A stretch of DNA of 64,000 nt from an uncultured Alphaproteobacteria bacterium (GTDB taxonomy: Bacteria > Pseudomonadota > Alphaproteobacteria > HIMB59 > GCA-002718135), in the NCBI GenBank assembly GCA_902614085.1, contig CACMJS010000003.1, positions 84,945 through 148,944 of the forward strand, in the 5' to 3' direction. Shown one piece after another: positions 34,180 through 61,114 of the stretch. The first letter of the stretch is position 1; every line of letters begins with the position of its first letter. The translations under genes were made by a program, and so were the position numbers. The notes under the pieces are model-generated. The model was not told where the DNA came from, searched no databases, and saw only the letters and a program-made list of their open reading frames with translations.

Positions 34180-34887
34180 ATGAAAGTTGATAAAGATCAA
34201 ATATCCGCATGGGGTGTTCATGCCTTCACTGGATCAGGAGCTATACTTGGTTTTCTTGCCTTAATATCAATATTAAATAATGATCAGGTTGGTAGTTTTT
34301 TATGGCTTGGTATGGCCTTACTTGTAGATGGAGTTGATGGTACTTTAGCCAGGAAAGTTGGTGTTGAGGAAAAAGCCCCAAATCTAGATGGAATTATTTT
34401 AGATTCCATTATTGATTATCTAAATTACGTTATCAATCCAGCTCTAATGATTTACTGGTTTCAAATGGTACCATCAGGTTTTGAAATGATTATGCCTGCT
34501 CTTATATTTGGAGTTTCTTTGTATACTTTTATCAACGTTAATATGAAAACGGATGATTATTATTTCCAAGGATTTCCTGCACTCTGGAATGTTGTGGTTT
34601 TATATTTCTTTATATTAAATACAAATGAATGGATAAACCTAATGGCTATAATTATATTATCAATATTGACATTTGTTCCATGGAAATTTGTTCATCCACT
34701 AAGAGTAAAATCATTTAGAAATTTAACGATTTTTTTTACTGTAGTTTGGGCAGCAACAACACTACGATTAGTGACAAAATCAGAAATAAACTTAATTATA
34801 AATGACACAATTGTTCTTTTAATATGGTTAATTTGTACTGGCTATTTTATTTATATTTGTTTTCTTAGATCGATTAAAGACTATTAA
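34180..34887 (+). CDS. pcs: phosphatidylcholine synthase (CDP-alcohol phosphatidyltransferase family)
   Basis: AWGVHAFTGSGAILGFLAL...FLWLGMALLVDGVDGTLAR...LDSIIDYLNYV closely follows the Pcs pattern, including the DG(x2)AR...D(x3)D motif. Confidence 0.8.
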   Translation: MKVDKDQISAWGVHAFTGSGAILGFLALISILNNDQVGSFLWLGMALLVDGVDGTLARKVGVEEKAPNLDGIILDSIIDYLNYVINPALMIYWFQMVPSGFEMIMPALIFGVSLYTFINVNMKTDDYYFQGFPALWNVVVLYFFILNTNEWINLMAIIILSILTFVPWKFVHPLRVKSFRNLTIFFTVVWAATTLRLVTKSEINLIINDTIVLLIWLICTGYFIYICFLRSIKDY

Positions 34888-34989
34888 AAACTTAAGTAAT
34901 TCAATATTATTTTGTATATGCAAAAAATGCATATCAACTAAGTATGAAATTCATTTTTAAAAAGAAATAAATTTTATTATTAAAATTTC

Positions 34990-35043
34990 ATCGTTCATTT
35001 TGAATAATTCAAAACGGAAGTAAACGAAAGTTGAAGGAACGCA
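34990..35043 (+). promoter_or_regulatory. glutamine riboswitch-like aptamer (glnA RNA motif), copy 1
   Basis: AUCGUUCA ... CGGAAGUA ... GAAAGUUGAAGGAACGC. P1 forms as CGUUC (34992-96) paired with GAACG (35037-41). Internal hairpins are UUUUGAA/UUCAAAA and AAC/GUU. Confidence 0.75.
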
Positions 35044-35056
35044 TGCAAGTTATTAA

Positions 35057-35109
35057 ATCGTTCAATCTGTATTAACAGATCGGAAGTAGGCTAAAGCTGA
35101 AGGAACGCG
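35057..35109 (+). promoter_or_regulatory. glutamine riboswitch-like aptamer (glnA RNA motif), copy 2
   Basis: AUCGUUCA ... CGGAAGUAGG ... UAAAGCUGAAGGAACGC. P1 forms as CGUUC (35059-63) paired with GAACG (35103-07). The hairpins AUCUGU/ACAGAU and GGC/GCU covary relative to copy 1. Confidence 0.75.
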
Positions 35110-35126
35110 GATCTTATTATTAATTT

Positions 35127-35178
35127 CCATAGCTAAGCATGAATTATAACGGATAAGAAAGGTTTGTTATAACTATGG
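35127..35178 (+). promoter_or_regulatory. imperfect hairpin between the aptamers and the operon (candidate expression platform)
   Basis: CCAUAG (35127-32) pairs with CUAUGG (35173-78), and UUAUAAC (35144-50) pairs with GUUAUAA (35166-72). The loop carries the purine tract AAGAAAGG, and the 3' arm contains AUG 35175. Confidence 0.4.
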
Positions 35179-35237
35179 TTAAAAAGTTAGATAATAAAAA
35201 ATTATTCTATTCAAATCTCATGAGGTTTACTCATTGA
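35175..35237 (+). CDS. candidate 20-codon upstream ORF (MVKKLDNKKLFYSNLMRFTH)
   Basis: Hand translation. AAAGG lies 12 nt upstream. Its TGA stop (35235-37) overlaps the ATG of the ATP-grasp gene (TGATG). Confidence 0.3.
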   Translation: MVKKLDNKKLFYSNLMRFTH

Positions 35238-36643
35238 TGTTTAATGAAATGTATCAATCTGAGTCAGTTATAAGAAATCATTATAACAATATTAATGATT
35301 GGTTGGATCAAATGACTTCAAAAGTTATTCTTGAAAAGAACGCTGAAGCTGAATCTCATTTTAGAAATATTGGAATTACATTTTCTACAAATAACGAAAC
35401 TGCAAGAGAAAGAATTATTCCGTTTGATTTAATTCCAAGGATATTTACTTATACAGAATGGTTAAGGCTAGAAAGAGGAGTAATCCAAAGAGCTAAAGCA
35501 CTTAATGCGTTTCTTGCTGATATTTATAATCAAGGTGAAATAATAAAAGCCAGTATAATTCCTAAAGAAATTATTTACAAAAAAAAATCTTTTGAACCTT
35601 CAATGTTTGGTTTTTCACCTCCTAGAGACATTTATAGTCCTATAATTGGTATTGATTTAGTTAGAACAGGCCCAAACGAGTATTTTGTTTTGGAAGATAA
35701 TTGTCGAACGCCAAGTGGTGTTTCCTACATGCTAGAAAATAGAGAAATAATGATGCGAATGTTTCCTGATCTATTTCATAACAATAGAGTAACGCCAATA
35801 GATGATTATCCTACAAGACTTTTACAAACTTTGATGAGCTTGGCTCCTATTAAATGCGAAAATCCAGAACCCGTATGCGTATTACTTACACCTGGTCCAT
35901 TGAATAGTGCTTATTACGAACATAGTTTTTTATCAGATCAAATGGGTATTGAAATGGTTGAATCAACCGATCTATTTGTCGAAGGTAAATACCTTTATAT
36001 GAAAACAGTAGATGGCCCAAAGAGAGTAGATGTTGTTTATAGAAGAATAGATGATGATTTTTTAGATCCTCTATGTTTTAATCCTCAATCTGTAATTGGC
36101 ATTCCAGGAATTATGGATGTTTATAGAACCGGAGGTGTCAATATTTGTTCAGCTCCTGGAGCAGGTATAGCCGATGATAAAGCAATTTATATATATGTAC
36201 CTGAGATGATTAAATTTTATCTAGGTGAACAACCAATCTTAGACAACGTTGAAACATGGAATTGTGAAAAGGAACAAGAATTAAAATACGTTTTAGATAA
36301 TATAAATGAACTTGTCGTAAAAGAGGTTGATGGATCTGGAGGATATGGAATGTTAATAGGTCCAAAATCTTCAAAATCTTCTATTGAAGAATTTAAAAAT
36401 AAACTCTCAACAAATCCAAAAGGATATATAGCACAACCTTTACTTGATCTTTCGTTTTCACCAACACTCATCAAAAATCAAGTTGAAGGAAGAAGAGTAG
36501 ATTTAAGACCATTTTGTTTAATAGGGGAACATGCTCAATTAAGTTCTGGAGGCCTAACAAGAGTAGCAATGAATGAAGGTTCGTTTGTCGTCAATTCTAG
36601 CCAAGGAGGCGGTGTTAAAGACACATGGGTTTTAGCTGAATGA
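35237..36643 (+). CDS. circularly permuted type-2 ATP-grasp protein
   Basis: About 470 aa with a pattern typical of the CP_ATPgrasp_2/DUF404-407 family (IPFDLIPRI, VLEDNCRTPSGVSYMLENR, YRRIDDDFLDP, NAPG.GIADDKA, VVKEVDGSGGYGM). GAGG lies 11 nt upstream of the ATG. Confidence 0.8.
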   Translation: MFNEMYQSESVIRNHYNNINDWLDQMTSKVILEKNAEAESHFRNIGITFSTNNETARERIIPFDLIPRIFTYTEWLRLERGVIQRAKALNAFLADIYNQGEIIKASIIPKEIIYKKKSFEPSMFGFSPPRDIYSPIIGIDLVRTGPNEYFVLEDNCRTPSGVSYMLENREIMMRMFPDLFHNNRVTPIDDYPTRLLQTLMSLAPIKCENPEPVCVLLTPGPLNSAYYEHSFLSDQMGIEMVESTDLFVEGKYLYMKTVDGPKRVDVVYRRIDDDFLDPLCFNPQSVIGIPGIMDVYRTGGVNICSAPGAGIADDKAIYIYVPEMIKFYLGEQPILDNVETWNCEKEQELKYVLDNINELVVKEVDGSGGYGMLIGPKSSKSSIEEFKNKLSTNPKGYIAQPLLDLSFSPTLIKNQVEGRRVDLRPFCLIGEHAQLSSGGLTRVAMNEGSFVVNSSQGGGVKDTWVLAE

Positions 36644-36652
36644 GGTATAAAA

Positions 36653-37588
36653 ATGTTAAGTAGAACAGCAGAATATCTATATTGGATAAGTCGTTATATG
36701 GAAAGAGCCGAAACAACTGCGAGGCTTTTGGACGTTGGTTATAGAATGTCTCTTTTCCCAAATCCTAGTGGTTATAATAATGAATGGGAATCAGTGTTAT
36801 CTGCTGCCGGAGCAATAGAAGGATATAAAAATAAATATAATACAATTGAACAAAGAAATGTTGAAGATTATCTATTTTTCGATGAAAGTAATCCTTCTTC
36901 TGTCTATAATTGTATTCTTAATGCTCGAAATAACGCATTAGTAGTTAGAACTTCCTTCACCCCTGAGTCTTGGTTAGCAATTAATAAAACTTATCAAGAG
37001 ATATTAAACTTAAAAGAAAAAAAATTTACTAAATCTGATTTACCTGACCTTACTGAATGGACCATAGAGCAAGTAAACTTATTTAGAGGATCGTTAAGTT
37101 CTTTGCTTAGAAATGATGGTTATAATTTTCTTTTTCTTGGATTATTTATTGAGAGGGCAGATAACTCAGCAAGATTATTAGATGTAAAGTACTTTGTTTT
37201 ATTACCTAAACCTCAATATGTAGGCGGTAATATTGATAATATGCAATGGAGTATATTGTTACGTTCTTTATCATCATTTAGAGCTTTTCGATGGGCATAC
37301 GATGGCAATATTACCGCAACTAAAATTGCTGATTTTTTAGTTTTAAATAATAACTGCCCTAGATCTTTAAGTTTTTGTATTCAGAATATTGTTAAACATT
37401 TAAATAATCTAACATGTAGTCCAGAAAAAGTTGGAAGAATTTATAATAATTTAAAAGATCTAAATTCTAAAATTCAAGAAGAAAAAATAGAAACAATTGT
37501 TGAATATGGTCTTCATCAATTCGTAACACAATTTATTAGAAAAATATCTAGTGTTGATAATGAAATACATAAGGAGTTTTTTAATTAA
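36653..37588 (+). CDS. alpha-E domain protein (DUF403 family)
   Basis: N-terminus MLSRTAEYLYWISRYMERAE and an internal repeat GLFIERADNSARLLDV, characteristic of alpha-E proteins that partner with cpATP-grasp enzymes. Confidence 0.8.
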   Translation: MLSRTAEYLYWISRYMERAETTARLLDVGYRMSLFPNPSGYNNEWESVLSAAGAIEGYKNKYNTIEQRNVEDYLFFDESNPSSVYNCILNARNNALVVRTSFTPESWLAINKTYQEILNLKEKKFTKSDLPDLTEWTIEQVNLFRGSLSSLLRNDGYNFLFLGLFIERADNSARLLDVKYFVLLPKPQYVGGNIDNMQWSILLRSLSSFRAFRWAYDGNITATKIADFLVLNNNCPRSLSFCIQNIVKHLNNLTCSPEKVGRIYNNLKDLNSKIQEEKIETIVEYGLHQFVTQFIRKISSVDNEIHKEFFN

Positions 37589-37589
37589 T

Positions 37590-38429
37590 ATGGAACTTAT
37601 CATTGAACACACAACTAAGTATGAATATAAAAATCCAGTTTCAGGATTAATTCAAACCACTAAATTACATCCCTCAGAATACAATGGTCTAAAAATTCTA
37701 GAATGGAATGTACATAATGATTCTGCAAAAAAATCAAAAATTTATCAGGATGGTGAGGCTAATAATATTCAAAGTTTTACAAATAAAAACAAGGTTAAAA
37801 AAATACAATTTACAGTTCTTGGAAAAGTAGAGACATTTGATACAAAAGGAATTTATCAGAGTGCTTCTGATAAAATCGACCCATTAGTTTACTTAAGAGA
37901 ATCAAATTTAACAAAAGCAAATGCTGATATAAAAAATTTAGCTATTGAAGCTAAAAATGGTTTTAATGAAAATGAAAATTTAGAAACATCTCATAATCTT
38001 ATGAATTTAGTAGCTGATAAAATTGAATACAAGCCATTAACTACAAATAATCAAACAACAGCAATTGAAGCATTTATACAGAAAAAAGGAGTCTGCCAGG
38101 ACCAAGCACATATTATGATTGCTGCTGCAAAAACTCTAGGAATTCCTGCTAGATACGTAAATGGTTATATGCACAACAATTCTCATTCTTCAGAATTTCA
38201 ATCTACACATGCGTGGGCTGAATTTTATATAAATGATTTAGGCTGGGTGGGATTTGACCCCACAAACAAGTGCAGTCCTGATGAAAGATATGTACGTGTT
38301 TCTTGTGGGCTTGATGCAAGTTATGCATCACCTATTAAAGGTGTTTTTTATGGAAATATTAATAATGATTCTTTGATAGAAAACCTAGATATTCATGTAC
38401 AAACATTGGAAAATAATTCTCAACAATAA
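37590..38429 (+). CDS. transglutaminase-like cysteine peptidase-fold protein
   Basis: Catalytic-core pattern GVCQDQAHIMIAAAKTLGIPARYVNGY ... HAWAEFY ... GWVGFDPTN (Cys-His-Asp). I chose ATG 37590 with AAGGAG 14 nt upstream rather than the overlapping upstream start at 37551. Confidence 0.85.
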   Translation: MELIIEHTTKYEYKNPVSGLIQTTKLHPSEYNGLKILEWNVHNDSAKKSKIYQDGEANNIQSFTNKNKVKKIQFTVLGKVETFDTKGIYQSASDKIDPLVYLRESNLTKANADIKNLAIEAKNGFNENENLETSHNLMNLVADKIEYKPLTTNNQTTAIEAFIQKKGVCQDQAHIMIAAAKTLGIPARYVNGYMHNNSHSSEFQSTHAWAEFYINDLGWVGFDPTNKCSPDERYVRVSCGLDASYASPIKGVFYGNINNDSLIENLDIHVQTLENNSQQ

Positions 38430-38484: not shown

Positions 38485-38847
38485 ATGTTTCAAAATAAAA
38501 AACAACTTCAGTATTTATGGATTTTTAAACCTGAACTTAAAGATATTGCAAAAAGAATTGCAGAAGATCATACAAAATGGATGAAGGAAACACATACAAA
38601 GGAAGGTGATAAAGCACTCCTAATGTTAAATTGGTCTATAGGCCCTGAATTTAAAGATGGAAATAAAACAGGCAATATGTCTCTAATCTTAACAGAGGTT
38701 TATGAAAATCAAGCAGGAATAGATGATCATTTTGAGCAAGCACAAAACAATGGTGCAACTTTTAGAGATGATTTTAATGATTTTGAAAGCAAATGTGAAA
38801 ATTCAGTAAAAATTAATAGTTCGGATATTATCCATTCAATGTGGTAA
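38485..38847 (+). CDS. hypothetical protein (120 aa), possibly dimeric alpha/beta-barrel-like
   Basis: Strong SD (AAAGGAGG) 5 nt upstream. No firm motif; the fold guess is weak. Confidence 0.45.
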   Translation: MFQNKKQLQYLWIFKPELKDIAKRIAEDHTKWMKETHTKEGDKALLMLNWSIGPEFKDGNKTGNMSLILTEVYENQAGIDDHFEQAQNNGATFRDDFNDFESKCENSVKINSSDIIHSMW

Positions 38848-38958: not shown

Positions 38959-39354
38959 ATGGAAATTGAAAAAATTTTTAAAAATTTAATTTTAGCAGAC
39001 TTTATTGTTATAATTTTAATGGTTATATCATCTATGTATCAACCGTCTGAAATTGCCAATCTTTATGAAAATTTAAATGATGGATTATTATCTAATTTTG
39101 AAAATTTTACCCGAATAGTATCGATTAGTTTATTTTTTTTATATCTATTAACTTTGAATCTACTTTATCGATTTATTTCTTATGGAAAATCACTGTATTT
39201 ATTTTTAGTAGTAGCTGGCATAGTTCTAAATTATTTTAGTGGTTCTGTTATTTATACTGCCTTTAGTGGTATGCTTGATCAAATTGGTGGATTAATTAGT
39301 GGAGCAATTTTGATTCTTTTATATTTTTCTCCAATTAAAGATAATTTTAAATAA
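38959..39354 (+). CDS. hypothetical membrane protein (about 4 TM)
   Basis: Four hydrophobic segments. Confidence 0.45.
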   Translation: MEIEKIFKNLILADFIVIILMVISSMYQPSEIANLYENLNDGLLSNFENFTRIVSISLFFLYLLTLNLLYRFISYGKSLYLFLVVAGIVLNYFSGSVIYTAFSGMLDQIGGLISGAILILLYFSPIKDNFK

Positions 39355-39472: not shown

Positions 39473-39865
39473 ATGGTAAGAACATTAGCTAAATTTATAA
39501 TTGGGTTATTAAGCTTATGGGCAGTAGTATTTATAATTGCAGAGATTATGGGTGTAACTATATATTTTCCTTTCACTATAGTTGAAAAACAAGAAATACC
39601 ATATCATAGAATTACTTCAGTCAGATTAGCTGTCTTTCTTACTTTTGCTTACTTTGGATTTAGATATCTTTTTCTTCAATCAGATAAACTTTATCCTATT
39701 CAGTTTTTAGAAATTTATATTAAATCATTTACAATTTGTTGTTTATTTGTTTTTTATACTAGTCAAGTTGAATTTAGAGAATACTATTTTGTTTTTTTCT
39801 TGTTTATAGTTTCATTAATTTTACATTTTGCATCAAGAAAAAAGATAAGAAGTTATTTTAATTAA
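39473..39865 (+). CDS. hypothetical membrane protein (about 4 TM)
   Basis: Four hydrophobic segments. Confidence 0.45.
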   Translation: MVRTLAKFIIGLLSLWAVVFIIAEIMGVTIYFPFTIVEKQEIPYHRITSVRLAVFLTFAYFGFRYLFLQSDKLYPIQFLEIYIKSFTICCLFVFYTSQVEFREYYFVFFLFIVSLILHFASRKKIRSYFN

Positions 39866-56309: not shown

Positions 56310-57104
56310 ATGGACAAAATACTCCAAAGATCAAATGGAAAAATAGATATAGAATTATTAGATAATGATTTTTCAAAATTTTTTCAAAGTGGTTGTTGTA
56401 AAATTTTAAATCCAAATAATTATAATAAAAGTCAAGAATTAGTTTTAATTAACACTGCAGGAGGTATTACTTGTAATGACAATATTGAAATTAATGCTAC
56501 AATTCATAATTCTGAATTAAGTATTTGTACGCAAGCCGCAGAGAAGATTTATTCAGGAATAGGTGATCCTGCTAAAGTAGACATAAATATCAATTTAAAT
56601 AATTCAACTTTGTATTGGTTGCCCAAAGAATTAATTTTATTTGATAATTCAAAATTAAGAAGAAGTATAAATATTAATCTATCAAATAATTCTAATTTGT
56701 TTTTTTGTGAAACTACTATTTTTGGAAGAAAAGCAATGTATGAAAAAATTAAAAATATTTCTTTTTCTGATCAATGGAAAATTTTTAAAAATTCTACAAT
56801 AAAGCATTTTGAAGCAATTAATATAAAAGGATCAACGATTGATAATTTTAAAAACAATTACACTTTTTCTAATCAATCATCTTTATCAACAATTTTAATT
56901 TTTGGTGAAATTGTTCATCAACTTGAGTTTGAGTTAAGTAAAGTTATAAAAACCAAAGAAAATCATTATTGTGAAATGACAAAATTTGATAATAAGATTG
57001 TAATTAGGTGCTTAGCCGATGATAATTATGATTTAAAAAAAACACTAAATTTTATTATGAAAAATATAATAAATGATAAACTACCAAAAAGTTGGGATCT
57101 ATAA
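56310..57104 (+). CDS. ureD: urease accessory protein UreD
   Basis: The position directly upstream of ureA, the length, and the LINTAGGI motif. Confidence 0.8.
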   Translation: MDKILQRSNGKIDIELLDNDFSKFFQSGCCKILNPNNYNKSQELVLINTAGGITCNDNIEINATIHNSELSICTQAAEKIYSGIGDPAKVDININLNNSTLYWLPKELILFDNSKLRRSININLSNNSNLFFCETTIFGRKAMYEKIKNISFSDQWKIFKNSTIKHFEAINIKGSTIDNFKNNYTFSNQSSLSTILIFGEIVHQLEFELSKVIKTKENHYCEMTKFDNKIVIRCLADDNYDLKKTLNFIMKNIINDKLPKSWDL

Positions 57105-57407: not shown

Positions 57408-57715
57408 TGAAACCTGGTGAAATAATAACAAAACAAAATAGTGACATTAATTTGAATGATAAAAGTCAATCAATCATCTTAAAAGTTTCAAATAGTGGAG
57501 ATCGACCAATACAAGTTGGTAGTCATTATCATTTTGCTGAAACAAATGAATATTTAAAATTTGATAGAGAAAAATCAAATGGTATGCGTTTAGATATACC
57601 ATCTGGTACAGCTGTTCGTTTCGAGCCTGGTCAATCAAAAGATGTAGAATTAATTCCAATAACGGGAAATAGAAAGATATTTGGTTTTAATAAGAAAGTT
57701 ATGGGTCAATTATAA
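57407..57715 (+). CDS. ureB: urease subunit beta
   Basis: MKPGEI...[20 protein letters not shown]...RFEPG is a canonical UreB sequence. Confidence 0.95.
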
Positions 57716-59421
57716 TGAAAAAAATAAAAAGAGAAGCTTATGCCGATATGTATGGACCAACAACTGGTGATAAAGTCAGACTTGCCGATACTGAACTCTT
57801 TATTGAGGTGGAAAAAGATTTAACAACATATGGTGAAGAAGTAAAATTTGGTGGAGGAAAAGTTATTCGAGATGGAATGGGTCAATCTCAAGTATCTCGC
57901 AAAGACGGCGCTGTTGATACAGTTATAACAAACGCTTTAATTGTAGATATAAATGGAATTTATAAAGCTGATATTGGTCTTAAAGATGGCTTAATTAATG
58001 AAATTGGTAAGGCTGGTAACCCAGACACACAACCAAACGTAAATATTATTATTGGACCTGGGACAGAAATAATTGCTGGTGAAGGTAAAATTATAACAGC
58101 TGGTGGATTTGATAGCCATATTCATTTTATTTGTCCTCAGCAAATAGACGATGCACTTCATTCTGGTATTACTACTATGTTGGGAGGTGGAACTGGTCCT
58201 GCACATGGTACTTTAGCTACTACAGTTACACCTGGACCATGGCATATAGAGAAAATGATACAATCAGCAGATGCTTTTTCTATGAACTTAGCTTTTGCAG
58301 GAAAAGGAAACGGTTCATTGCCTCAAGCACTTGAAGAACAAGTAATTGCTGGTGCAAGCTCACTAAAATTACATGAAGATTGGGGCACAACCCCAGCAGC
58401 AATAGATAATTGTTTAAATGTAGCTGATGATAATGACATTCAAGTAATGATTCATACAGATACATTAAATGAAAGTGGATTTGTCGAAAGTACAATTAAA
58501 GCAATTAATGGACGAACAATTCACGCTTTTCATACTGAAGGAGCTGGTGGGGGTCATGCACCGGATATAATTAAAGTATGCGGAGAACAATATATTATTC
58601 CGTCATCTACAAATCCAACAAGACCATACACAGTTAATACAGTTGAAGAGCATTTAGATATGTTAATGGTTTGCCATCACTTAGATAAATCAATACCTGA
58701 AGATGTTGCGTTTGCTGAAAGTCGTATTCGCAAAGAAACAATTGCTGCAGAAGATATATTGCATGACATGGGTGCTTTTTCAATTATTGCTTCTGATAGT
58801 CAAGCCATGGGCCGTGTTGGTGAAGTTATTATTAGAACATGGCAAACAGCACATAAAATGAAAGTTCAACGGGGACAATTAAAAGAAGAGCAAGGTGATA
58901 ATGACAATGTAAGAGTGAAAAGATATATTGCTAAATATACAATTAATCCTGCAATAGCTCATGGTATTTCTAATCATATTGGAAGTATCGAAAAAAATAA
59001 ACGTGCTGATATTGTTATTTGGGATACTGCTTTTTTTGGTGTTAAACCTGAAATGGTATTACAAGGAGGAAGTATTGCTTGTGCACAAATGGGTGATCCT
59101 AATGCATCTATACCAACACCACAACCAGTATACTCAAGACCAATGTTTTCTTCTTTTGGAAAATCATTAGAAAAATCTACTGTTACTTTTGTAAGTAAAG
59201 TTTCTTTAGATAAAAATTCATTTAAAAACTCTGGTGTAAGTAAATCTTTGTTACCAGTTAAGAATATTAGAAAAATTTCTAAAAAAGATATGATATTAAA
59301 TGATTATTGTCCAAAAATAGAAGTTAACCCAGAAACTTATGAGGTTTTAGCAGATGGTGAGTTAATTACTTGTGAACCAGCCAAAACACTACCTTTAGCT
59401 CAACGTTATTTTATGTATTAA
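57715..59421 (+). CDS. ureC: urease subunit alpha
   Basis: Active-site motifs [20 protein letters not shown] (carbamylated Lys), MVCHHLD and [15 protein letters not shown]. Confidence 0.97.
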
Positions 59422-59870: not shown

Positions 59871-60506
59871 ATGAAAAAATTTAAAGATCCTCATCAAATA
59901 TTACAAATATGGTTTTCATCTTCTTTTCCTATTGGTTCTTACGCATACTCTCATGGTTTAGAAGCGTTGATAGATGATAAAAAAATTAAAAATAAAAATG
60001 ATGTTAAAGAATTTTTAGATGCCCTTTTATTTTATGGAACATTAAGAAATGATTATATTTTTATGAAATCTATTTACAAAGGTGGGGAAGTTAATGAATT
60101 AATTTTAGCAAGTGCTGCATCCAAAGAAAGACAAATAGAAATGATAGATATGGGAAATTCTTTTCGTAAAATCATGAAAGATAGCTGGGAATTATTTCTA
60201 CCTGAAAATACATCGTTTATATATTGTTTGGCAAAAGCTGGATTATATTTTGATATTAAGTTTGATGATTTAATTAAGTTTTACTTACAGTCATTTATTT
60301 CTAATTTAATAAATGTATGTGTAAAACATATACCAATGTCGCAAAAAGATGGGCAAAGTCTTAATGTTATTTTTATTAATCAAATTCAAGAATTTTTAAC
60401 TCACTCAGATAAACTGACTCTCAATGATATCGGTACAACTTTTTTTATTGGTGATATTTTTGCAATTAAGCATGAAAACTTAGACTCAAGGATTTATTTA
60501 ACGTGA
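59871..60506 (+). CDS. ureF: urease accessory protein UreF
   Basis: The [15 protein letters not shown] motif. I chose ATG 59871, 1 nt after the ureE stop, rather than the overlapping start at 59805. Confidence 0.85.
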
Positions 60507-61114
60507 ATAATATAAATGGACCTTTAAAGGTTGGTATTGGTGGTGGAATAGGGACTGGTAAAACGAGCTTAACGGAAGCATTATGTCGTTATCTATCTAA
60601 AAAAGTTTCTATGGCAGTAATATCAAATGATATTTATACAACTGAAGATGCTGAATATTTAATGAAAGCACAAGTTCTACCTATAGAGAGAATTAAAGGT
60701 GTTGAAACTGGTGGATGTCCACATACAGCTATTAGGGAAGACTGTAGTATTAATTTACTTGCAGTAGATGAGATGAAAAAAAAATTTCCAGATTTAGAGT
60801 TAATCCTTATTGAATCAGGTGGTGATAATTTAGCGGCAACTTTTAGTCCAGAGTTAGTTGATTTAACAATTTATATGATTGATGTAGCTCAAGGTGCTGA
60901 CATACCTAGAAAAAAAGCACCAGCAATTAGAAAGTCTGATTTATTAGTAATTAATAAAGTTGATCTTGCTCCATATGTAAATGTTGATTTAGAGCAAATG
61001 AAAGAAGATGTTAATGAAGCCAGAAATGGTTTGCCATATATTTTTGGTGAAATGAAAAATAATGACGGAATTGAAAAAATTTCTGACTTCTTAATATCCC
61101 ATGGCGGATTATAG
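60503..61114 (+). CDS. ureG: urease accessory GTPase UreG
   Basis: P-loop [27 protein letters not shown] and NKVDLAP motifs. GTG start overlaps the ureF stop. Confidence 0.92.

Follow-up and report, generated by a model that had tools for sequence, protein, structure and literature searches.

The glnA RNA class of glutamine riboswitches (RF01739) is characterized (Weinberg 2010; Ames & Breaker 2011) by a three-stem junction, conserved core sequences and a C directly after the P1 helix. As summarized from Ren et al. 2015 in PMC6212724, this C forms a long-range G-C pair on ligand binding, and the mechanism given there for the class is that capture of the C by the ligand melts a short helix formed by the adjoining nucleotides. 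Tandem glutamine aptamers have already been documented (PMC2864571; PMC9481103), as has a link to ammonium transporters in marine metagenomes, the association of the (tandem) glnA motif with amt in unassigned marine reads being reported already in Weinberg 2010; the owners of these metagenomic aptamers are stated in the literature to be unknown. Here we describe two aptamers of this kind, with the same junction, core sequences and C after P1, in the leader of an operon encoding an ATP-grasp protein, an Alpha-E domain protein and a transglutaminase-like protein, within a 64,000-nucleotide stretch of contig CACMJS010000003.1 from an uncultured alphaproteobacterium (hereafter, the window). Unlike the published RF01739 members, which a RefSeq survey found in cyanobacteria only, this pair appears to belong to a heterotroph resembling HIMB59/AEGEAN-169. 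We consider it fairly probable that the locus is a tandem glutamine-I riboswitch with a shared translational platform and a coupled upstream open reading frame (uORF), through which glutamine would turn the operon off.

The proposed design resembles several described systems in part. As for gifB (Klahn et al. 2018, PMC6212724), control would be exerted at translation, and the C 3' of P1 together with the next nucleotides would form the ligand-melted helix. However, the gifB tail pairs with the ribosome-binding site directly, whereas here the tails of two aptamers would pair with a separate sequestor, and the start codon at stake would be that of the uORF. Tandem glycine riboswitches likewise join two similar aptamers to one expression platform, but their fold and ligand are different, and the linker here pairs with a block on the 3' side rather than with the 5' leader; of inter-aptamer tertiary contacts or cooperative binding, the sequence gives no sign. 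The Glutamine-II or Downstream-peptide motif (RF01704) is also a glutamine-binding element that precedes short ORFs (17-100 codons) in marine bacteria. Unlike that motif, the aptamers here are of type 1, and the short ORF encodes an unconserved peptide and leads a larger operon.

The assignment of the aptamers is based on a comparison of the entire window with all Rfam models at gathering thresholds (cmscan). RF01739 (Glutamine, glnA leader), with a gathering score of 35 bits, matched the forward strand at 34990-35045 (aptamer 1; 66.0 bits, E 2e-12) and at 35057-35111 (aptamer 2; 64.2 bits, E 7e-12) and nowhere else in the window. Both matches span model positions 1-53 of 53 with scores almost twice the gathering score, neither alignment contains a flagged non-canonical pair, and the conserved core blocks AUCGUUCA, CGGAAGUA and GAAGGAACGC are free of substitutions relative to the Rfam consensus in both aptamers. 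A preliminary description of this locus had proposed tandem glnA-motif aptamers and suggested the RF01739 model as a check; the two matches above the gathering score bear the proposal out, and helices P1, P2 and P3 were all located where it had placed them. Its observation of compensatory hairpin changes between the two copies turned out to be part of a far larger pattern. Among all loci collected in this work, P2 is represented by 108 distinct sequences, 97 of which retain five or more consecutive pairs counted from the junction, with at least three Watson-Crick pair types at several positions, and P3 by 55 distinct sequences in which each pair varies among GC, AU and GU. The pair thus has the covarying P1/P2/P3 junction of the class, and it precedes nitrogen-related genes as part of their 5' leader, on the sense strand and at a distance of 126 nt from the first ATG of the operon. 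By comparison, the best that RF01704 attained was 16.8 bits in the region of aptamer 2 (E 0.08), against a gathering score of 33. By sequence and predicted structure, the two elements are type-1 glutamine riboswitch aptamers, for which glutamine binding is predicted.

The arrangement is conserved among the closest relatives of the operon. In a scan that included one genome per species and used the ATP-grasp protein as the query, such that the genome loci were selected on the protein only, tandem aptamers were found upstream of every one of the 25 orthologues that share 86% identity or more. Their leaders form four divergent subgroups (A-D) that have an identical order of parts, and this conservation supports a cis-regulatory role of the aptamer pair. 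The orthologues at 86-99% identity come from marine single-cell genomes labelled 'uncultured Alphaproteobacteria', including AG-337-I02, a genus name within the order HIMB59/AEGEAN-169 (PMC8692485), and from these nearest relatives we infer that the host is a HIMB59/AEGEAN-169-like heterotrophic marine alphaproteobacterium. The preliminary description had pointed to related Pelagibacterales for this comparison, which holds only in part: the nearest genomes are of the AG-337-I02 type, the membership of HIMB59/AEGEAN-169 in SAR11/Pelagibacterales is disputed (PMC10308909), and the orthologues from Pelagibacteraceae (73-77% identity) are devoid of the aptamer, as judged by a scan of 145 kb of their operon loci with the Rfam covariance model. 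The orthologues at about 63% identity are mainly from Rhodobacterales, and at those loci no aptamer was found by a strict pattern only.

The mechanistic statements that follow rest on sequence comparison and nearest-neighbour folding only. Downstream of aptamer 2, every ATP-grasp leader contains, in the same order, a spacer, a 16-nt block, a stem-loop (H) and a short ORF. The block is identical in 24 of the 25 genome loci (the remaining one, L014, has a single A to G change in a predicted internal loop) and occurs once in the window, compared with 0.04 expected occurrences. Stem-loop H was predicted by per-sequence folding in every leader subgroup, with stems that compensate between subgroups and a loop resembling a Shine-Dalgarno (SD) sequence, GAAAGG or GAAGGAG; RNAalifold applied to the MAFFT alignment of the post-aptamer region missed this hairpin because its arms are offset between subgroups. 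The block has a complementary partner in the inter-aptamer linker: CAUGC-A-AGUUAU (35042-35053) matches AUAGCU-AA-GCAUG (35129-35141) in 5 + 6 pairs separated by a small internal loop, forming a helix that encloses aptamer 2. In 19 distinct linker/block combinations 11 of the 11 pairs are kept; changes at paired positions are solely A to G opposite U, and the rest are in the internal loop or the tail. In addition, the GGA of the aptamer 2 tail can pair with UCC at the junction of the spacer and the block in 45 of the 49 distinct cassettes, with a fourth adjacent pair that co-varies in part (GGAU/AUCC, GGAA/UUCC) and is missing in the commonest form, GGAU/UUCC. We regard this GGA:UCC pairing as a weak candidate.

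The same arrangement was found upstream of other genes. A metagenome search with a pattern composed of the aptamer 3' end and the block, in which the block was therefore fixed, yielded 95 contigs. Where a downstream ORF could be called, the leader precedes an ammonium-transporter gene in 73 cases (Pfam Ammonium_transp, 328 bits) and the ATP-grasp gene in 16. The linker GC-AUGCA(A/G)AGUUAU is common to the two types of leaders, and the amt leaders contain a hairpin homologous to H with wholly different, compensating stems. By sequence, the cassette is a portable unit of about 150 nt. The preliminary description had stressed that the aptamers are not upstream of amt. This is correct for the window, where they precede the ATP-grasp operon, but the same leader cassette precedes amt genes elsewhere.

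Folding of the platforms points to a second partner for the block. In platform-only folds of the ATP-grasp leaders, the block pairs with the uORF start codon, in the window as CCAUAG (35127-32) with CUAUGG (35173-78), and in the amt leaders the end of the spacer and the 5' half of the block (UUAAUUUCCAUAG) form a long helix with the ribosome-binding region (UAUGGAGGAUUAA; mean P 0.74 over 45 distinct platforms). In platform-only folds, the probability that the uORF AUG of the ATP-grasp leaders is paired was 0.86 for the native sequences, 0.56 when the spacer end and block were scrambled and 0.55 for 200 ordinary genes; the corresponding values for the SD region of the amt leaders were 0.78, 0.63 and 0.53. 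When the linker was included in the fold, the probability of a paired uORF AUG dropped to 0.10. The competing duplexes are nearly isoenergetic, at -8.7 to -9.7 kcal/mol for linker and block (-8.7 kcal/mol in the window), -8.5 kcal/mol for block and uORF start in the window, and -7.7 kcal/mol for block and amt SD. As modelled, the platform follows a classic scheme with three elements, namely an anti-sequestor, a sequestor and a ribosome-binding site, and we infer that the tandem riboswitch acts on translation.

In the ATP-grasp leaders, the start site in question would be that of the uORF. An ORF of 16-29 codons with an ATG start is present in 32 of the 32 distinct leaders and terminates at a position from -10 to +8 nt relative to the main ATG, whereas the chance of such an ORF per leader is 5-11% under mononucleotide shuffling. 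The encoded peptides are mutually unalignable among about seven lineages; because the uORF is nevertheless kept in all 32 leaders, it is the frame and the end point that are conserved rather than the peptide. No SD precedes the ATP-grasp ATG in subgroups B-D; in subgroup A, a GAGG 11 nt upstream is a possible one. Because the ATP-grasp gene lacks an SD of its own in most sister lineages and its start codon overlaps the uORF stop, translation of the operon would follow that of the uORF by coupling. Under this scheme, the riboswitch would gate initiation at the uORF, and the operon would then be translated through coupling.

The two alternative pairings of the block translate into a putative switch. 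In the open state, the block would pair with the linker upstream while the GGA tail pairs with UCC, leaving the uORF start free; in the closed state, the block would pair with the uORF start region downstream and prevent initiation. Both aptamer tails would thus engage the sequestor (C35042-AUGC with GCAUG-35141, and GGA with UCC), which is one inversion beyond the gifB logic. Because the tails would mask the sequestor rather than the SD, glutamine is predicted to release the block, close the uORF start and repress the operon. This polarity suits the apparent targets, namely ammonium transporters and an operon of a type that, according to PMC5666114 and PMC6376114, is induced by nitrogen limitation in Pseudomonas putida. 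We lean, if only slightly, towards glutamine switching the operon off.

The opposite polarity is the alternative that has to be taken most seriously, even though we consider it rather unlikely. With the same architecture, ligand binding to aptamer 1 would melt an extension of P1 (CAU:AUG, 34989-91/35043-45) and free AUGC, which would then form the linker-block helix, so that the sequestor is held, the uORF start is open, and glutamine switches expression on. The aptamer 1 of the window does allow this 3-bp extension, with a bulged C, and the precedents weigh against an OFF switch: the sole experimentally tested type-1 member, that of Synechocystis gifB, turns translation on with glutamine (PMC6212724), and the genes downstream of both glutamine motifs decrease on nitrogen depletion, according to an inference of Weinberg 2010. 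Moreover, one Amt paralogue of Ca. P. ubique is made only under nitrogen-replete conditions, with its mRNA unchanged (PMC3870248). However, the required CAU 5' flank is not conserved in subgroup D and in most of the amt leaders, and the operon type is induced rather than repressed by nitrogen limitation in P. putida, as reported in PMC5666114 and PMC6376114. Furthermore, because C 35042 forms the first pair of the linker-block helix, its capture by the ligand should weaken this helix, which detracts from the ON scheme. A different doubt concerns the uORF, which might be an incidental AT-rich ORF, or might be translated so as to shield the leader from Rho-dependent termination or RNase, with control at the transcript level. 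In accord with this possibility, the peptide is not conserved between subgroups, shuffled leaders contain such ORFs at an appreciable rate, the distance of 12-14 nt from the SD-like purine run to the uORF AUG is long, and the GAGG of subgroup A could serve the main ATG. Nonetheless, the retention of the frame and its end point in all distinct leaders of about seven lineages, the lack of an SD at the main ATG in subgroups B-D and the failure to find an intrinsic terminator in the leader argue against it, and we consider this explanation unlikely.

Two further alternatives seem still less plausible. A 2022 survey (PMC9481103) assigned 157 glutamine doublets to the 'pseudo-cooperative' class, that is, two complete riboswitches in series, and under that assignment the aptamers of the window would act independently. 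However, only 17 nt lie between the two P1 helices; this linker contains neither an SD nor a start codon nor a terminator, and it is complementary to the block located 3' of aptamer 2. The two aptamers accordingly do not each have a platform of their own, and a single module of block, H and start site is conserved after the pair in 32 leaders of the ATP-grasp type and about 45 of the amt type. Because the linker contains no platform and takes part in a helix that encloses aptamer 2, a design with two aptamers and one platform fits better, and independent action appears highly improbable. Viral genomes are consistent with this conclusion. Earlier surveys had found merely a handful of phage glutamine riboswitches; in IMG/VR contigs, which were selected on neither linker nor block, we identified 119 tandem glutamine aptamer pairs (L177-L295), with linkers of 6-11 nt, shorter still than that of the window. 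Like the cassette of the window, these pairs and the pelagiphage and cyanophage cases described previously (PMC9004378, PMC5473149) combine two type-1 aptamers with one ribosome-binding site, but they have no complementary block and no uORF. Instead, the tail of aptamer 2 pairs with the SD directly, with covariation (CAUCU:AGAUG, CACCU:AGGGUG, CAAUCU:AGAUUG, CACUC:GAGUG), which by analogy is the gifB logic and the glutamine-ON model (PMC6212724). Least probable of all, in our estimate, is that the aptamers keep the fold but sense a ligand other than L-glutamine in the HIMB59-like lineage. Variant specificities are generally known from other riboswitch classes, and the binding data for this class are limited to cyanobacterial members; against this, the core blocks equal the Rfam consensus in both aptamers, and the regulated genes, amt and a nitrogen-responsive type of operon, suit a glutamine signal.

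Several of our own results weigh against the proposed glutamine-OFF platform. The linker-block helix includes no double compensatory change, and the invariance of the block in the metagenome set proves nothing because the search pattern fixed it, so that the linker and the genome loci alone provide unbiased evidence. The GGA:UCC pairing comprises only 3-4 bp, and in subgroup D it is disrupted by AGA. In subgroups B-D, a simple duplex test did not set the match of the block to the uORF start region above background (p = 0.10), and this complementarity appears in the folding models only. A folding proxy that compared locked and open P1 of aptamer 2 gave no meaningful shift in the accessibility of the start site. 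Finally, the p-values are optimistic because related leaders were treated as independent.

Other candidate interactions in the platform were considered and discarded. A simple anti-SD model, in which UUUCCAUAG pairs with the ribosome-binding region, fits the amt leaders but not the ATP-grasp leaders generally (p = 0.10), and the enrichment of RUGGAG in the amt leaders is in part just that of a strong SD: TGGAG is present in roughly half of the GGAG-bearing start regions of background genes (0.067 vs 0.134). Pairing of GUUAU in the linker with (A/G)UAAC after the block comprises 5 bp only, is not nested with CAUGC:GCAUG and is missing in several amt leaders; it was replaced by GUUAU:AUAGC, in which the partner is within the block. 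Start of a leader peptide at the ATG inside the block (GC-AUG-A) was rejected as well, the resulting frames being 2-8 codons long, unconserved and without an SD. A search of the viral contigs for the block alone returned one match, in an unrelated GC-rich coding region, which we attribute to chance.

The class of the aptamers, their tandem form and the association with amt are already published, and their identification here by itself adds little. By contrast, the link to the ATP-grasp/Alpha-E/transglutaminase operon is absent from the RF01739 associations that we found in the literature, and neither a HIMB59-like heterotrophic host nor a platform that combines linker, block and start site with a coupled uORF was encountered in the literature searched. 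The present analysis assigns a glutamine sensor to a streamlined lineage of marine heterotrophs and links glutamine status to an operon whose biochemical role has been open since 2008-2009, making a role in nitrogen scavenging directly testable. It also suggests a design in which two aptamers would converge on one output through the linker-block helix and in which the polarity could be the reverse of that in cyanobacteria and phages. More tentatively, the portable cassette, from palindrome to block, could define, in marine alphaproteobacteria of the HIMB59/AEGEAN-169 type, a small glutamine regulon consisting of several amt paralogues and the Anbu-type operon, with a two-input, single-output, glutamine-OFF translational switch that acts through the coupled leader ORF at the ATP-grasp gene; the 3' tail of each aptamer would then mask a different part of one sequestor. 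If true, such a regulon would represent the first glutamine-OFF design in the class and would provide independent evidence for a role of an Anbu-type amidoligase system in nitrogen scavenging.

The features of the leader and the operon are listed in Table 1. The leader occupies a non-coding gap of about 350 nt, the length given in the preliminary description, between the stop of the upstream gene at 34887 and the ATP-grasp ATG at 35237; the upstream neighbour is a CDP-alcohol phosphatidyltransferase-like ORF. No intrinsic terminator was predicted in the leader. With no Anbu (proteasome beta-like) gene present, the operon comprises only the core trio of the 'Anbu operon'. The preliminary description regarded the operon as having no characterized role in nitrogen metabolism. 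The operon is indeed uncharacterized, but a link to nitrogen has been reported: according to PMC5666114 and PMC6376114, which both refer to Hervas 2008, nitrogen limitation induces the ATP-grasp/Alpha-E/transglutaminase(+Anbu) operon in Pseudomonas putida.

Table 1. Coordinates of the leader elements and operon genes in the window
Feature	Position	Strand	Remark
Palindrome TATGCAAAAAATGCATA	34917..34933	.	Candidate operator/promoter element common to ATP-grasp and amt leaders
Aptamer 1 P1	CGTTC 34992-96 / GAACG 35037-41	+	Sequence read
Aptamer 1 P2	TTTTGAA 34998-35004 / TTCAAAA 35008-14	+	Sequence read
Aptamer 1 P3	AAC 35023-25 / GTT 35030-32	+	Sequence read
Linchpin C 3' of P1	35042 (aptamer 1), 35108 (aptamer 2)	+	Sequence read
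Inter-aptamer linker CAUGCAAGUUAUUAAAU, 17 nt	35042..35058	+	35042-35053, proposed anti-sequestor strand
Aptamer 2 P1	CGTTC 35059-63 / GAACG 35103-07	+	Sequence read
Aptamer 2 P2	ATCTGT 35065-70 / ACAGAT 35075-80	+	Sequence read
Aptamer 2 P3	GGC 35089-91 / GCT 35096-98	+	Sequence read
AU-rich spacer	35108..35126	+	Starts GGA, ends UCC; GGA 35109-11 (aptamer 2 tail) may pair with UCC 35126-28
Invariant 16-nt block CCAUAGCUAAGCAUGA	35127..35142	+	Proposed sequestor of the translation start site
Stem-loop H, arms UUAUAACGGAU / GUUUGUUAUAA	35144..35172	+	SD-like AAGAAAG(G) in loop
uORF, 20 codons, MVKKLDNKKLFYSNLMRFTH	35175..35237	+	Stop TGA overlaps ATP-grasp ATG (TGATG)
Circularly permuted ATP-grasp protein, 468 aa, first operon gene	35237..36643	+	PF14403, 510 bits
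Alpha-E domain protein	36653..37588	+	PF04168, 292 bits
Transglutaminase-like protein	37551..38429	+	PF01841 + PF08379; ORF overlaps end of Alpha-E gene

The nearest solved structure of the ATP-grasp protein is PDB 3N6X, which it matches over the full length (E 1e-174); this is a structural-genomics entry titled 'putative glutathionylspermidine synthase', so that the family has a structure without an assigned reaction. The transglutaminase gene is followed by three small ORFs on the forward strand, at 38485-38847 (120 aa), 38959-39354 (131 aa) and 39473-39865 (130 aa), none of which has a Pfam match. Among the NCBIfam models, none matched the three operon proteins or the ORFs at 38485-38847 and 38959-39354, the only proteins scanned.

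The perfect palindrome upstream of the aptamers has the form TATGC(A/G)-N5-TGCATA and occurs once in the window. With a strict regular expression, it was found 73-74 nt upstream of aptamer 1 P1 in 28 of the 31 distinct regions preceding ATP-grasp genes and, at the same spacing, in 34 of 60 other, mostly amt, upstream regions; some of the misses are ATGCG variants. The palindrome looks like the site of a dimeric regulator or a promoter element and would add transcriptional control above the riboswitch; a sigma-54 element is not supported, the GC-to-GC spacing, judged from the sequence, being 9 nt instead of the expected 11 or so. The leaders of Pelagibacteraceae (L026, L028-L033, L036, L038, L039, L041 and L042) contain a conserved near-palindrome, TGTCAATTTGGCA, about 60-75 nt upstream of the ATP-grasp ATG, which suggests that a protein regulator may replace the riboswitch in this group; at two other loci, L035 and L037, a different inverted repeat is present, AATTGGCA-N10-TGCCAAATT.

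Some of the contigs collected show additional arrangements. L091 and L149 both contain two tandem amt genes, and each gene is preceded by a separate two-aptamer cassette, with about 2 kb between the copies. L105 also carries two cassettes, 1.8 kb apart; the sequence after the first of them leads straight into an Amt-like coding region and lacks the stem-loop and SD that are otherwise usual. In L104 (minus strand; cassette end at 2621 in reverse-complement coordinates), the cassette precedes a gene for a 123-aa protein with no Pfam match, and the regulon may therefore include further members. The viral tandem aptamers have an A/T-rich TAAATA(T/A)... box directly upstream, and the ORFs downstream of them, with no assigned function, start with MTKYQ..., MTMWTRYC... 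or MNRFDH....

Elsewhere in the window, RF02514 ('5' ureB sRNA') matched the minus strand at 57867-58151 (127.6 bits), antisense within the urease alpha-subunit gene (57715-59421, plus strand) of a urease cluster that also includes UreD (56310-57104) and UreG (60503-61114). The probable cause of this match is the conserved coding sequence of urease rather than a small RNA gene; the family has also been reported from a metagenome-assembled genome of Pelagibacterales (PMC12379486).

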